Positions 102 through 4,982 of a stretch of DNA of 4,982 bases are shown piece by piece (position 1 is the first letter of the stretch; every line of letters begins with the position of its first letter). The stretch lies in IMG/VR virus record IMGVR_UViG_3300029499_000043; one strand, given 5' to 3'. The DNA is from a virus. Taxonomy: Duplodnaviria > Heunggongvirae > Uroviricota > Caudoviricetes. Below the pieces are notes generated by a model, which was given only the letters and a program-made list of their open reading frames with translations, ran no database searches and had not been told where the DNA came from. The position numbers were made by a program, and so were the translations under genes.

Positions 102-503
102 TTATCCCTGATAAAATGCCAGTATGCGCTGCATAACTTCACTCATCCGGCACTCGCGACAGATTATGTTTAGGCGACTGTCGTAGCGACGTATTTCTCC
201 ATCAGGTAACGACCAGATAAGGTCTGGATCAACCACAGCTGTTTTCTTCACCTTTGCCCTCGAGAGTTTTTTGCGGGCGTTTTGCCAGTCCTTACGCGCC
301 TGTTCAGACGGGAATAACCCGTAGCCGGAGTTGTATACATCGCCACTGGCTACCAGCTCTCTGGCAAGAACGCTCATCAGATATCTAGTCGCACCTGTTT
401 TAGCTTCCAGTTGCCGTAACGTCTCACGACCGCTCTGGCGCACGAGTTCCACCACCTGCCCTTTAATTTTTTCCCGCTCTTCTTGTGTAAAAACTTTTGC
501 CAC
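102..503 (-). CDS. Hypothetical prophage protein, 133 aa, basic; last gene of the replication module. Function not recognised.
   Basis: Intact ORF in the track. The start codon is GTG at 503..501, preceded by a strong Shine-Dalgarno (AAGGGGGA, about 3-4 nt upstream). It lies 40 bp downstream of the replication gene on the same strand. No motif I can name. Confidence 0.55.
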   Translation of the reverse strand: MAKVFTQEEREKIKGQVVELVRQSGRETLRQLEAKTGATRYLMSVLARELVASGDVYNSGYGLFPSEQARKDWQNARKKLSRAKVKKTAVVDPDLIWSLPDGEIRRYDSRLNIICRECRMSEVMQRILAFYQG

Positions 504-543: not shown

Positions 544-1509
544 TTATCCTCTGAAACCAGGCGGAATTTCTGTATCCGGTTCAGAAATATGATTAACACA
601 ACGCTGTACAGGTGAACGCCCCAGGCGGATGACCAGTTCGTCCCATTTTTCGCGGAGCTTTGACGGGCTCATGATGTTTTTTACCCAGAATGGATCCCGC
701 TGTACCCGACCAAACATTTCACAAATTTGTCTGTGGCTTCTGCCATCCAGCATCCGCATTGTGCGCACATCATTGGCCCAGACAGTCCAGTTAGGCTCTT
801 TTGGTCGCATGATCTCGCCATCATCACTGGCGGCCTGTTCGTAGAGACCCACGATCCGCCCCCATATCCACTGCGCACACGCCAGATCCTCCTGGCTACC
901 CCACTGGCGTTTTTTCGCACTAAACACAACTGCGCCAGGGTGCCGGATTAAAAAATCCTGTTCAGCCGTCTGCGGGTCCGGTTGCGAAGCTTCCGGACGA
1001 AAAGTGTTTTTATTCTCTGTAGTAATCTCTGTTGTATTCTCTGTAGGATCATCGGGCCATTTTGACCCGATGACATTGGGTCGTTTTGAACCAATGGAGC
1101 GTTTCATTTTGACCTCTTCCATCGTGTCATTTTGACCTGATGGAGCGGCGCATTTTGAACCGATGGATTCGCTCAATTTGCCATCATCTAAAAGCTCGCT
1201 TCCATAGTTAATCGTGTAGAAATTGGTCATATCGCGCTTTGATTTATTGAGCTTTTCACAACGCAAAAGCCCCAGCGTTTTCAGACTTGCAAACGCGCGC
1301 TTTAACGTTGACTCTGACCAGAATGGGAACTGTTCCAGCCATTGTTCCGTTGTGTTGTAAATCCAGCGAACACCATCACATTCCATGCCGGAATTGGTAT
1401 CTCTCAACCAGTAATGCAACTGCTGCAACACAATGGCTTCATTTAAGCCAATCTTCATCGCAAGCTGTGTGTTTATAACCAGTGGGCGTTCAGCAAAAAG
1501 AAGGCTCAT
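544..1509 (-). CDS. Phage replication initiation protein (lambda O-like / replisome organiser), with an N-terminal helix-turn-helix region and an internal iteron-encoded linker. The track ORF starts at TTG 1563; the more likely start is ATG at 1509..1507 (MSLLFAERPLVINTQLAMKIGLNEAIV...).
   Basis: 339-codon ORF in the track. The N-terminal segment resembles the DNA-binding domain of phage replication initiators/replisome organisers. The gene contains five direct repeats (iterons) and an AT-rich repeat block, as the lambda O gene contains ori-lambda. It sits immediately downstream of the cII-like gene, the canonical lambdoid position for O. Confidence 0.75.
   Translation of the reverse strand: MSLLFAERPLVINTQLAMKIGLNEAIVLQQLHYWLRDTNSGMECDGVRWIYNTTEQWLEQFPFWSESTLKRAFASLKTLGLLRCEKLNKSKRDMTNFYTINYGSELLDDGKLSESIGSKCAAPSGQNDTMEEVKMKRSIGSKRPNVIGSKWPDDPTENTTEITTENKNTFRPEASQPDPQTAEQDFLIRHPGAVVFSAKKRQWGSQEDLACAQWIWGRIVGLYEQAASDDGEIMRPKEPNWTVWANDVRTMRMLDGRSHRQICEMFGRVQRDPFWVKNIMSPSKLREKWDELVIRLGRSPVQRCVNHISEPDTEIPPGFRG
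1011..1047. repeat. Three tandem 12-bp repeats (TATTCTCTGTAG / TAATCTCTGTTG / TATTCTCTGTAG) in an AT-rich tract next to the iterons. Candidate DNA-unwinding or accessory-factor element of the origin.
   Basis: Read directly from the sequence. Encodes the repetitive peptide TENTTEITTEN in the initiator linker. Its position relative to the iterons mirrors the iteron plus AT-rich layout of ori-lambda. Confidence 0.45.
1058..1172. repeat. Five iteron-like direct repeats (candidate origin of replication) embedded in the replication-initiator coding sequence. Consensus on the + strand is CATTTTGA(A)CC-N-GATGG.
   Basis: TTTTGA cores begin at 1060, 1084, 1107, 1130 and 1154, giving a regular 23-24 bp spacing. 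On the coding (minus) strand they translate to the repeated peptide motif SIGSK / IGSK. A sixth degenerate copy may lie at about 1173-1188. Confidence 0.6.
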
Positions 1510-2011
1510 AATTCCATCCAGCTTTTTGTTGGTATTGCTGTCGATACGCAAGTTTGAAAGCAATTGCTTTTTCTATAAGTTCGTCAGTTTCACGATCCAC
1601 TACGGCAGGATCAGCAAAAAGCAGTCCGGACTCCACCACATCGCCATATTCTTTGTTTAACCCGGCGATCATGTACGTGATGCTTTTTCCGTCACTAATT
1701 TCACGATACAACCTGAAATCATTAATCCGGATAGCCTCCATAATTGCAGGCACTAGCGCCGTGAACTTTTCACGCTTATCCCTGGTGTCGATAGCCTTCC
1801 AGCGTTCGAATATCTTCACTCGATTAACGCCAAGCGCTCGCTGATCAACCGCGCCACCTTCATCTGTGACACGCTGAACATCGATGTTCGGGCGCTCTTT
1901 CAAAGCCCAGAATGCTTCAGTGATTAATATCGTCGCCTGCTCCTGTGTCATTCCTGGTCGACATATCCAGGCATCCAGAGCCTCACGAGCCTGTTCAGGA
2001 GTGATTTTCAT
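1490..2011 (-). CDS. YdaT-like (CII-like) prophage regulator, 173 aa. Likely corresponds to the full-length form of the ydfX region of Qin.
   Basis: ATG start at 2011..2009; intact ORF. It lies directly downstream of the cro-like gene on the same strand, in the cI-cro-cII order. The 3' end overlaps the replication gene start by about 20 nt and the 5' end overlaps the dicC-like stop by 17 nt. The YdaT family assignment is from recollection of the protein family, not a search. Confidence 0.7.
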   Translation of the reverse strand: MKITPEQAREALDAWICRPGMTQEQATILITEAFWALKERPNIDVQRVTDEGGAVDQRALGVNRVKIFERWKAIDTRDKREKFTALVPAIMEAIRINDFRLYREISDGKSITYMIAGLNKEYGDVVESGLLFADPAVVDRETDELIEKAIAFKLAYRQQYQQKAGWNYEPSFC

Positions 2012-2222
2012 TGTTCAACCGCCCCGCCCGCTTCGTCTTACGATATTCGTCATAAACCTTGGGATCATACAGAAGCTCGCCGCCAGATGCCTCCTGTAGA
2101 CGCATCGCGCGACCTTCAGGAACCAGCTCTTGCCATTGAGAAACAGCAGATGGGTCAACGCCAGCAGCTTTCGCTACTTTGGCTTTCGTACCGTAAAAAT
2201 TAATTACGTCTGATTTAAACAT
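1995..2222 (-). CDS. dicC: Cro-like small DNA-binding regulator (DicC/YdaS family), 75 aa from ATG 2222 (MFKSDVINFYGTKAKVAKAAG...). The track ORF begins at an upstream TTG at 2249.
   Basis: Shine-Dalgarno GGAGG about 4 nt upstream of ATG 2222 on the minus strand. Divergent from the repressor gene. The C-terminal segment (LVPEGRAMRLQEASGGEL...YDPKVY...NNENHS) matches my recollection of DicC. Size about 76 aa, as for DicC. Confidence 0.75.
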   Translation of the reverse strand: MFKSDVINFYGTKAKVAKAAGVDPSAVSQWQELVPEGRAMRLQEASGGELLYDPKVYDEYRKTKRAGRLNNENHS

Positions 2223-2299: not shown

Positions 2300-2707
2300 A
2301 TGAACGAGAAAACTTTAGGTCAACGCATTAGAGAAAGACGTAAGCAGGTAGGTTTAAGTCAAAACGGTTTAAGCAAAGCTGCTGGCGTATCTGGCTCATC
2401 AATTTCATTATGGGAAAGTGACCATACAGCCCCGCGCGGGCAAAATTTGCATCGCCTCGCCGAGGTATTGCAATGTTCACCAACCTGGATACTGTTTGGC
2501 GACGAGGACAAAACACCAGCTCCCCCTGTTTCACTCGATAGTGCCTTAGACTTATCGGAAGATGAGTTAGAGATGCTGCGTTTGTATCGCGCACTTCCTA
2601 AATCAGAGCAACAAGCACAACTCAGCGAACTCCGCGCCCGCGTTGAGAATTTTAATCGCCTGTTCACCGAGCTATTAGAGGCTCGCAAACGCAACAAGCA
2701 TCAATAA
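2300..2707 (+). CDS. dicA: DicA-like HTH (XRE-family) prophage repressor, 135 aa from ATG 2300 (MNEKTLGQRIRERRK...). An alternative upstream ATG at 2249 would give 152 aa.
   Basis: The N-terminal region has a clear helix-turn-helix signature (QRIRERRKQVGLSQNGLSKAAGVSGSSISLWESD). The VLQCSPTWILFGDEDK segment and the C-terminal region match my recollection of DicA. The 135-aa length equals that of DicA. No strong Shine-Dalgarno for either start, so the start is uncertain (possibly a leaderless or short-leader transcript, as for cI). Confidence 0.8.
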   Translation: MNEKTLGQRIRERRKQVGLSQNGLSKAAGVSGSSISLWESDHTAPRGQNLHRLAEVLQCSPTWILFGDEDKTPAPPVSLDSALDLSEDELEMLRLYRALPKSEQQAQLSELRARVENFNRLFTELLEARKRNKHQ

Positions 2708-3056: not shown

Positions 3057-3632
3057 ATGGATTTCGACACAATCATGGAAAAGGCTTACGAAGAATACTT
3101 CGAAGGCCTTGCCGAAGGCGAAGAAGCTCTCAGCTTCAGTGAGTTTAAACAGGCACTCAGAATAAGAATGCGCTCTCACAATGACGCGGAGCACAAATAT
3201 GAGAAGCAAAATCAGACCGCAGAAAATTTTGTTCTGGAACCCGGAGAAACGCTTTTCAAAATTCCCGTTACGTGCCCCATTTGCGGTTTTACATCAGAAG
3301 AACTTGACGACTCCTGTAACAATCAGGAAACAACCAAGTATGTCGAAGATGATACCGAGTGCGCACGAAGAACGATTATATCCACGAGTCCAAACTCCAG
3401 GACCAATAAATCTCACTTTGAGAGGGTGATTAATCCACTCCCCCAAACCAATAAAAAAGATGCCGGAGGACAAAAAAACCAATGGAACAACGGGATATCT
3501 GTCAAAAAAAGACGTTCCATTAAAGACAAACAACGCAGCGCCAACAACTGTAAGCGCTTTATACCAGTAATCAATTTTCATGTTCTTAAGCGGATTTATT
3601 GGTGGTTGCGACATTGCTTAATGAATCCTTAA
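3057..3632 (+). CDS. ydfB/ydfC-like early gene(s). One uninterrupted frame from ATG 3057 (MDFDTIMEKAYEEYFEGLAEGEEAL...) with a second in-frame ATG at 3168 (MRSHNDAEHKYEKQ...). The true 3' extent is uncertain: the C-terminal 80 codons are K/N/R-rich low complexity over A-tracts.
   Basis: Shine-Dalgarno AGGTG 6 nt upstream of ATG 3057. The start is 1 nt after the ydfA stop, which suggests coupling. In K-12 this region is annotated as two small genes (ydfB, ydfC), as far as I recall. Here no stop occurs until 3630..3632. The tail contains poly-A runs at 3453..3458, 3472..3478 and 3504..3510. Confidence 0.5.
   Translation: MDFDTIMEKAYEEYFEGLAEGEEALSFSEFKQALRIRMRSHNDAEHKYEKQNQTAENFVLEPGETLFKIPVTCPICGFTSEELDDSCNNQETTKYVEDDTECARRTIISTSPNSRTNKSHFERVINPLPQTNKKDAGGQKNQWNNGISVKKRRSIKDKQRSANNCKRFIPVINFHVLKRIYWWLRHCLMNP
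3294..3614 (-). CDS. Candidate small membrane protein, 106 aa, with three predicted hydrophobic helices, antisense to the 3' part of the ydfB/C-like frame. Possibly a superinfection-exclusion or holin-like protein; possibly an artefact.
   Basis: ATG at 3614..3612 with AAGGA about 11 nt upstream on the minus strand. Hydrophobic segments are ALTVVGAALFVF, VVPLVFLSSGIFFIGLGEWI and ALGIIFDILGCFLIVTGVV. Caveat: an antisense reading of lysine/asparagine-rich A-tracts automatically yields Phe/Leu-rich hydrophobic stretches. Confidence 0.3.
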   Translation of the reverse strand: MSQPPINPLKNMKIDYWYKALTVVGAALFVFNGTSFFDRYPVVPLVFLSSGIFFIGLGEWINHPLKVRFIGPGVWTRGYNRSSCALGIIFDILGCFLIVTGVVKFF

Positions 3633-3891: not shown

Positions 3892-3949
3892 TTTCTGGTG
3901 ACGTTTGGCGGTATCAGTTTTACTCCGTGACTGCTCTGCCGCCGTTTTT
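3892..3949 (+). ncRNA. dicF: DicF small regulatory RNA (Hfq-dependent antisense inhibitor of ftsZ translation), including its intrinsic terminator: stem GGCGG 3907..3911 with CCGCC 3939..3943, then T-tract 3945..3949.
   Basis: The sequence TTTCTGGTGACGTTTGGCGGTATCAGTTTTACTCCGTGACTGCTCTGCCGCC followed by TTTTT matches the roughly 53-nt DicF RNA as I recall it, almost base for base. It lies in an ORF-free stretch immediately upstream of dicB, as in Qin. Confidence 0.85.
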
Positions 3950-4307: not shown

Positions 4308-4495
4308 ATTCAGCATTTGCGCTTGTTCTGACAGTTTTTCTTGTTTCCGGAGAGCCAGTTGATATTGCAGTCAGTGTTCACAGGACAATGCAGGAGTGTA
4401 TGACTGCAGCAACCGAACAGAAAATTCCCGGTAACTGTTACCCGGTCGATAAAGTTATTCACCAGTATAATATCGAAATCCCGGCAGGTCTTTAA
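4304..4495 (+). CDS. ydfD: YdfD, a small prophage lysis protein with a hydrophobic N-terminus, 63 aa (MNSAFALVLTVFLVSGEPVDIAVSVHRTMQECMTAATEQKIPGNCYPVDKVIHQYNIEIPAGL).
   Basis: ATG 4304..4306 overlaps the dicB stop TGA 4305..4307 (ATGA overlap). Shine-Dalgarno AAGGA at 4291..4295. The 63-aa size and sequence match my recollection of YdfD. The track ORF 4250..4495 is an N-terminally extended version of the same frame. Confidence 0.85.
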   Translation: MNSAFALVLTVFLVSGEPVDIAVSVHRTMQECMTAATEQKIPGNCYPVDKVIHQYNIEIPAGL

Positions 4496-4588
4496 AACAG
4501 TTCCGTAATAAATATCCGGTTTCATTCTTATATGCCAGCAATGGCAGGGATTTGTTCATCCTTAAATCTGTCATGAGGTTAAAACAAA

Positions 4589-4982
4589 ATGAGTAAAGTC
4601 TTTATTTGCGCCGCTATTCCTGACGAACTGGCAACAAGGGAAGAAGGCGCTGTGGCTGTAGCCACAGCCATTGAAGCTGGCGACGAACGCCGTGCTCGAG
4701 CAAAATTTCACTGGCAATTCCTGGAACATTATCCGGCTGCTCAGGACTGCGCTTATAAATTTATTGTCTGCGAGGATAAACCTGGCATACCCCGCCCTGC
4801 CCTCGATTCATGGGATGCTGAATATATGCAGGAAAACCGCTGGGATGAGGAGTCTGCTTCTTTTGTCCCGGTTGAGACTGAATCCGATCCGATGAACGTC
4901 ACTTTTGACAAGCTGGCCCCTGAAGTACAGAACGCTGTCATGGTTAAGTTCGACACATGTGAAAACATCACCGTTGATATGG
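4589..4982 (+). CDS. ydfE: YdfE-like acidic protein, 3'-partial: 131 codons to the window edge with no stop (MSKVFICAAIPDELATREEGAVAVATAIEAGDERRARAKFHWQFLEHY...). Possibly the N-terminal region of a RecE-type exonuclease-family protein.
   Basis: ATG 4589 with Shine-Dalgarno GAGG at 4575..4578 (about 10 nt upstream). The open frame runs to 4981 without a stop, so it is absent from the supplied ORF track. Position after ydfD as in Qin. Identity from recollection only. Confidence 0.7.
   Translation, partial: MSKVFICAAIPDELATREEGAVAVATAIEAGDERRARAKFHWQFLEHYPAAQDCAYKFIVCEDKPGIPRPALDSWDAEYMQENRWDEESASFVPVETESDPMNVTFDKLAPEVQNAVMVKFDTCENITVDM

Follow-up and report, generated by a model that had tools for sequence, protein, structure and literature searches.

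A partial gene at the edge of a prophage fragment is very probably the start of the Qin-type ydfE/exonuclease gene

The 4,982-nt stretch of viral DNA analysed here, called the window throughout, carries the DicF small RNA, then dicB and ydfD, and after these an open frame that runs off the 3' end (Table 1). Because the window holds DicF, dicB and ydfD, the region is recognised as the dicBF early-left operon of a Qin-type lambdoid prophage. The preceding segment, from position 102 to 2707, is an intact-looking immunity and replication region of a kind largely lost from the Qin prophage of K-12. At its 5' edge (1-94) the window opens within the end of an IS5 element: the IS5 transposase CDS of NZ_CP053247.1 ends at window position 27, and genomes that lack this insertion match the window from position 95 on. 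IS5 also sits elsewhere in the same prophage of related strains, for example within dicB in NZ_CP030768.1. The putative 191-residue protein at 3057-3632 has a C-terminal half that is rich in Lys and Arg and of low complexity. The minus-strand ORF nested within this frame is a rival coding candidate; it would encode strongly hydrophobic segments, with Kyte-Doolittle values above 1.6 around residues 40-60 and 81-106, and has no PHROG match.

Table 1. Genes, RNA elements and overlapping ORFs of the window (nucleotide positions), and domains of the full-length exonuclease protein (aa positions)
Feature	Position	Strand	Details
Ren-like exclusion / DUF977 protein	102-503	-	phrog_142
Replication O-like protein	544-1563	-	phrog_391
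YdaT-family protein	1490-2011	-	
Cro/DicC-like protein	1995-2222	-	
DicA-like repressor	2300-2707	+	
'Hypothetical protein', 191 aa	3057-3632	+	phrog_35040; YdfB-like beginning
ORF, 106 aa	3294-3614	-	Wholly inside 3057-3632 (+)
DicF small RNA	3893-3944	+	Full-length Rfam RF00039, 72.5 bits, E 3.8e-15
dicB, cell-division inhibitor, 62 aa	4119-4307	+	Early-left (dicBF) operon
ydfD, lysis protein YdfD, 63 aa	4304-4495	+	Directly upstream of the exonuclease gene, same operon
Leader hairpin TGCCAGCAATGGCA (4533-4546; 5-bp stem, GCAA loop), then T-rich GGGATTTGTT	4533-4556	+	Terminator-like match
Third overlapping ORF, 52 aa	4571-4729	-	From the ORF list
Shine-Dalgarno sequence GAGGT	4575-4579	+	9 nt 5' of ATG 4589
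Exonuclease gene start	4589-4982	+	131 codons plus 1 base, of 823 codons when intact
Shadow ORF, 74 aa, TTG start	4671-4895	+	Non-coding; lies in the +1 frame relative to the exonuclease gene
Antisense shadow ORF, 72 aa, GTG start	4753-4971	-	Non-coding; its wobble positions coincide with those of the exonuclease frame
YdfE_N (PF27430)	~aa 1-95		Compact alpha/beta fold; wholly window-encoded
YdfE_C (PF27432)	to ~aa 255		Only its beginning window-encoded
RecE-homologous acidic central region	aa 262-625		CxxC...CxxC motif
C-terminal DEDDh 3'-5' exonuclease domain, Rv2179c-like (PF16473)	aa 642-813		

The frame at the 3' edge begins with an ATG at 4589-4591 and translates without a stop through position 4981, to the end of the window. 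An in-frame TAA at 4580-4582 makes this ATG the earliest possible start. At this base composition, the chance of a 131-codon open run is P ~0.001, and homology decides the point regardless. Both the GAGG of the Shine-Dalgarno sequence and the ATG are unchanged in 9/9 aligned diverged copies, and the base after GAGG is deleted in three of them. The 131 codons encode a strongly acidic product with 26 Asp and Glu residues against 12 Lys and Arg residues and a pI of 4.36. The frame is missing from the ORF list because ORFs that run off the source are unlisted. The initial annotation had proposed a genuine partial CDS here that was absent from the ORF track, preceded by a good Shine-Dalgarno sequence and encoding a strongly acidic product; each of these points is borne out, and CDS annotations in other genomes start at the same ATG.

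Several lines of evidence identify the gene. The product is identical to the N terminus of K-12 YdfE (b1577) at 131/131 positions (E 9e-99), as expected from the earlier proposal that it resembles the start of YdfE. It also matches PHROG 2082 'exonuclease' over residues 1-131 (E 1e-95). Of 5426 complete E. coli genomes, 3888 (~70%) contain the 394 nt of the partial gene, as do 17 phage records, among them HannyBb, PhiR42_1, Tritos, Evi, mEp460_ev081 and PPompW. The CDS covering these 394 nt is always named exonuclease, 3'-5' exonuclease or exodeoxyribonuclease VIII, and its annotated start coincides exactly with ATG 4589. Over its whole 4982 nt the window differs from NZ_CP053247.1 by one mismatch, at position 225. 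In that genome, a CDS of 2472 nt starts at the same ATG and encodes an 823-aa protein (WP_000048333.1); the gene order is dicB, ydfD, the exonuclease gene, excisionase (xis), integrase (int) and chromosomal rspB. NZ_CP030768.1 has the same arrangement. Positions 4589-4982 thus very probably hold the beginning of the final long gene in a Qin-type lambdoid early-left (dicBF, pL-like) operon, the gene called ydfE in K-12 and encoding an intact 823-aa exonuclease in most other strains. It is an ordinary and already known gene, annotated in thousands of genomes. A literature search found no experiment on this exonuclease protein, and the term 'ydfE' returned incidental mentions only.

The ATG lies 93 nt beyond ydfD, and this gap contains a conserved leader. 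Its ~57 nt (4532-4588), comprising the hairpin, the T-rich tract and the Shine-Dalgarno sequence, are essentially invariant in nine copies. The leader is kept even where the upstream sequence is unrelated, as in Evi, which has kil upstream, and in PPompW types. The hairpin is a terminator-like match of a kind whose count is not above that in shuffled sequences, and the leader RNA (4490-4600) folds no more stably than shuffles (z = -0.21). The hairpin pairs are invariant in the nine copies, so they yield no covariation evidence. Lying after ydfD and ahead of the exonuclease gene, the segment at 4533-4556 is a plausible candidate for a weak terminator or a processing site. In the published description the dicBF operon reads ydfABC-dicF-dicB-ydfDE, with dicBp as its promoter and DicA as its repressor (PMC10448788). 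Northern blots of K-12 detected a 1608-nt ydfABC-dicFB-ydfD species and no longer one reaching ydfE (PMC10448788). The leader hairpin may explain why K-12 transcripts end after ydfD. In a lysogen the operon would be repressed by the DicA-like repressor, with expression following on induction, and expression of the exonuclease gene would probably need read-through of the conserved hairpin after ydfD.

The domains of the full-length protein are read from near-identical genomes, as the window itself ends at codon 131. The C-terminal exonuclease domain lies ~1.5 kb beyond the window. It matches PF16473, a family whose name refers to an exoribonuclease, over the full length of the domain (E 1.6e-66; 223.8 bits, gathering cutoff 27). 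The DEDDh set is complete: D646 and E648 (in DLET), D746 (in NGANFD), and H796 and D801 (in HNALDD). In a sequence search of the PDB, T4 DexA (8kel/8ken) aligns to aa 643-776, over Exo I and Exo II. The central region contains a four-cysteine motif, CTACGQTGGGNCPDCG (CxxC-x7-CxxC), at aa 551-565 of the protein encoded at 10589-13060 of locus L002, with the CxxC pairs at 551 and 562. This motif is conserved between the full-length protein and RecE (~517-531 in RecE, in a part of RecE to which no function is ascribed), and it looks like a zinc ribbon.

The N-terminal part is less readily placed. PF27430 and PF27432 appear in the precomputed Pfam annotation of proteins 86-99% identical to the window product, which is strong though indirect evidence for both families here, and the extent of YdfE_N and YdfE_C in the window was judged from which partial proteins carry which family. 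A search of the 131 residues against Pfam, in a release that predates the YdfE_N and YdfE_C models, and against NCBIfam gave no match; the empty Pfam result is explained by these models being newer than the release searched. An AF2 model of the 131 residues, built from a 27-sequence alignment, has a mean pLDDT of 82 and agrees with this extent: residues 1-95 form one compact domain, the linker at 98-101 is modelled with low confidence, and the next domain opens with a helix at 111-121. Foldseek comparisons of this model gave no significant match in the PDB (best E 0.31, TM <0.4, weak ferredoxin-like matches only) or in BFVD (best E 0.04, all to small uncharacterised proteins).

Two of the listed ORFs that overlap this frame are the plus-strand one at 4671-4895 and the minus-strand one at 4753-4971, and either might be taken for the true gene or for an additional one. 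Both stay open in 8/8 diverged copies, which is weak evidence because the copies are merely 4-9% diverged. These eight copies, 91-96% identical, come from Evi, mEp460_ev081, a PPompW-type prophage, phage 204576 and four E. coli chromosomes. As judged from their alignment, purifying selection is shown to act in the 4589 frame, whose third codon positions account for 33 of the 46 variable columns (chi-square p = 2e-7). The minus-strand ORF shares the wobble positions of the main frame, so codon-position statistics alone do not tell the two apart, and counts of synonymous and non-synonymous changes were added for this reason. The non-synonymous fraction of changed codons is 0.27 over the whole 4589 frame and 0.38 over the interval it has in common with the minus ORF, as against 0.97 for the plus-strand ORF and 0.53 for the minus-strand ORF (eight copies throughout). 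Moreover, both ORFs have non-ATG starts, with no Shine-Dalgarno sequence ahead of TTG 4671. Neither product has a significant match in Pfam or PHROG (the best for the plus-strand ORF is phrog_22567, E 0.12), and neither ORF is annotated in any record inspected. The plus-strand peptide (NIIRLLRTALINLLSARIN...) occurs in protein databases solely within frameshifted calls of the exonuclease gene. Given this substitution pattern, the lack of a family match and the restriction of the peptide to frameshifted calls, the two ORFs are artefacts, as the initial annotation had supposed in calling them shadows, and it is scarcely credible that either is a gene here. Granted that the 4589 frame is the coding one, the source copy could still be a decayed fragment, as in K-12, with no functional exonuclease downstream. 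At the same position, K-12 MG1655 has ydfE, an annotated pseudogene that matches the intact gene without a difference over 767 nt (255 codons) and is then cut by IS2E sequence. K-12 strains carry the same 394 nt unchanged, and the upstream neighbours dicB and ydfD, the 5' leader and the start are likewise shared, apart from an SD-to-ATG spacer that is 1 nt shorter in K-12. Damaged copies also occur elsewhere: L008 is interrupted by IS1203, L007 (PPompW) has a 4-bp frameshift, and P0020 and P0055 carry in-frame deletions. The window's own start, being the end of an IS5 element, points to IS activity in this prophage. On the other hand, every record that matches the whole window at ≥99.98% carries an intact 2472-nt gene. 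The replication genes retained in this prophage type are missing from K-12 Qin, and 3537 of the 5426 complete E. coli genomes have 80% or more of the full gene, compared with 3888 for the N-terminal segment. An immediate stop beyond the window, giving a short product with no homologs, had been raised as the outcome that would count against the gene; in the closest genomes the frame instead reaches codon 823. Judged from these near-identical genomes, this copy is probably intact downstream, as is usual for the prophage type, and decay of the K-12 kind is quite unlikely.

A different question is whether the intact gene encodes a genuine orthologue of RecE (exonuclease VIII), that is, a 5'-3' PD-(D/E)XK dsDNA exonuclease partnered by RecT. 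The earlier description of the product as resembling YdfE / RecE-like proteins stands for YdfE, over all 131 residues, and fails for RecE in the window's 131 residues; likeness to RecE is confined to aa 262-625 of the full-length protein. There it is considerable, with 39% identity to RecE 277-590 (E 2e-61) across a central, non-catalytic region that includes the CxxC...CxxC stretch. The gene also takes the position of recE in Rac, a slot in the lambdoid early-left operon between a cell-division inhibitor and xis-int, and like RecE its product is large, acidic and multi-domain. Matches to NF007259 and to PHROG 607/412 'exonuclease VII/VIII' point in the same direction, and some records call the gene product exodeoxyribonuclease VIII. 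However, the NF007259 RecE equivalog model gives 281 bits, where its cutoff is 1269, and is matched at model positions 271-602 only, and a BLASTP comparison of the 131 residues with RecE detects no similarity (best E 1.7). K-12 RecE consists of PF06630 (Exonuc_VIII; residues 1-177, E 6e-98) and the PD-(D/E)XK domain PF12684 (residues 614-849). In Pfam searches PF06630 is missing from the window product and from the full-length protein alike, and PF12684 is absent from the full-length protein of near-identical genomes. The two proteins therefore differ at the N terminus, where RecE has Exonuc_VIII and the exonuclease protein has YdfE_N and YdfE_C, and in their catalytic domain, which is of the 5'-3' PD-(D/E)XK type in RecE and here has the DEDDh fold, with an expected 3'-5' chemistry of opposite polarity. 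In Rac, recE is followed by recT; here there is no adjacent recT, and xis and int come next in the genomes inspected. At the level of sequence comparison RecE orthology is refuted, and the likelihood that this gene is RecE is very small. The N-terminal portion of RecE is likewise of unknown function (PMC11611040).

More distant relatives of the exonuclease protein point to a modular organisation. A phmmer search with the 131 residues against 1.84 billion representative proteins returned only 55 clusters at E ≤0.001. The long distant relatives (25-50% identity) are from Enterobacter and Pantoea. Distant relatives share aa 1-460 with the exonuclease protein and are without its DEDDh domain. One of them, P0232, has a RecE-type PF12684 domain. 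Most of the Enterobacter and Pantoea relatives carry another C-terminal domain, with a KKSLTDAIKKALS motif, which PHROGs labels 'exonuclease'. This domain has no match in Pfam or among PDB sequences, and its AF2 model (P0211 type, pLDDT 84) has no significant Foldseek match in the PDB. One relative of this kind occupies the same lambdoid slot, with a repressor and Cro, Kil, the YdfE-type protein, a Gp157-family gene and, further on, an integrase.

Proteins that combine YdfE_N/YdfE_C with an uncharacterised C-terminal domain are 670-800 aa long and occur in Enterobacter and Pantoea prophages (L013/L014, 5001-7361; P0211, P0213, P0218, P0226, P0233-P0235, P0238, P0242 and P0244-P0246). In their C-terminal domain, long beta-hairpins precede a helix that bears the motif KKSLTDAIKKALSLLGFSADVWLG (P0211 type). 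P0211-type proteins are labelled 'exodeoxyribonuclease VIII' in databases, yet have no recognisable nuclease domain. A Rad52/Sak-like annealing domain was considered for the P0211-type C terminus and is unsupported by Pfam, PDB sequence and Foldseek searches. In these Enterobacter and Pantoea prophages the Sipho_Gp157 gene comes next after the YdfE-type protein. P0020 and P0055, the in-frame internal-deletion derivatives mentioned above, are found on 10 and 19 contigs; in them ~63-95 N-terminal YdfE residues run straight into the C-terminal portion of the exonuclease domain. They lack its first DxE motif and appear to be recurrent decay products of the exonuclease gene.

The pattern of shared and exchanged domains suggests that the YdfE N-terminal module is conserved and non-catalytic, and that the effectors attached to it vary. 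The module encoded in the window would accordingly be non-catalytic and probably serve in targeting or assembly, because it recurs before different C-terminal domains in related prophages; this role is conjecture, since neither the PDB nor BFVD offers a significant structural neighbour for the N-terminal domain.

By comparison with T4 DexA and Rv2179c, the C-terminal domain would remove nucleotides from 3' ends by two-metal DEDDh chemistry. The exonuclease protein and T4 DexA have in common the PF16473 domain with all DEDDh residues. An E. coli homologue of DexA, EcD ('HREX', HAK9828821.1), is reported to degrade 5hmC DNA, to protect against T4 and to have Ala at the position of DexA D90 (PMC12153337). 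The equivalent of D90, a tetramer-forming Asp in DexA, is retained here as Asp718, unlike the Ala reported for EcD, and DexA S87 corresponds to Pro715. The HMMER alignment to DexA leaves out the 5hmC-recognition residues (around DexA D169). Furthermore, DexA and EcD are small proteins that stand alone, lacking the N-terminal extension of 640 residues seen in the exonuclease protein. PADLOC finds no defence-system match for the full-length protein, and a role in anti-phage defence is possible but unsupported.

Several functions could follow from this activity, including processing of DNA ends in place of a RecET/Red module, scavenging of host DNA and exclusion of other phages. The DEDDh version has no annealing partner and therefore might act outside recombination. 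A broader and rather doubtful proposal is that YdfE_N/YdfE_C is a conserved, non-catalytic adaptor of lambdoid early-left operons with interchangeable effectors, the DEDDh version of which might serve, as a DexA/EcD-like nuclease, in host-DNA scavenging or phage exclusion and not in recombination.

The case illustrates how ORF tracks delimited by stop codons lose genes at the edges of a window and leave the shadow ORFs of those genes behind; frames that are open at an edge merit separate reporting in such tracks. The exonuclease gene is among the commonest E. coli prophage genes, being found in ~70% of complete genomes, and its database names, 'exodeoxyribonuclease VIII', 'exonuclease' and '3'-5' exoribonuclease', conflict. 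To call the product RecE is misleading, since its catalytic domain has a different fold and would act with the opposite polarity. Knowing the domain content guards against wrongly assuming a RecET-type recombination module in Qin-type prophages.
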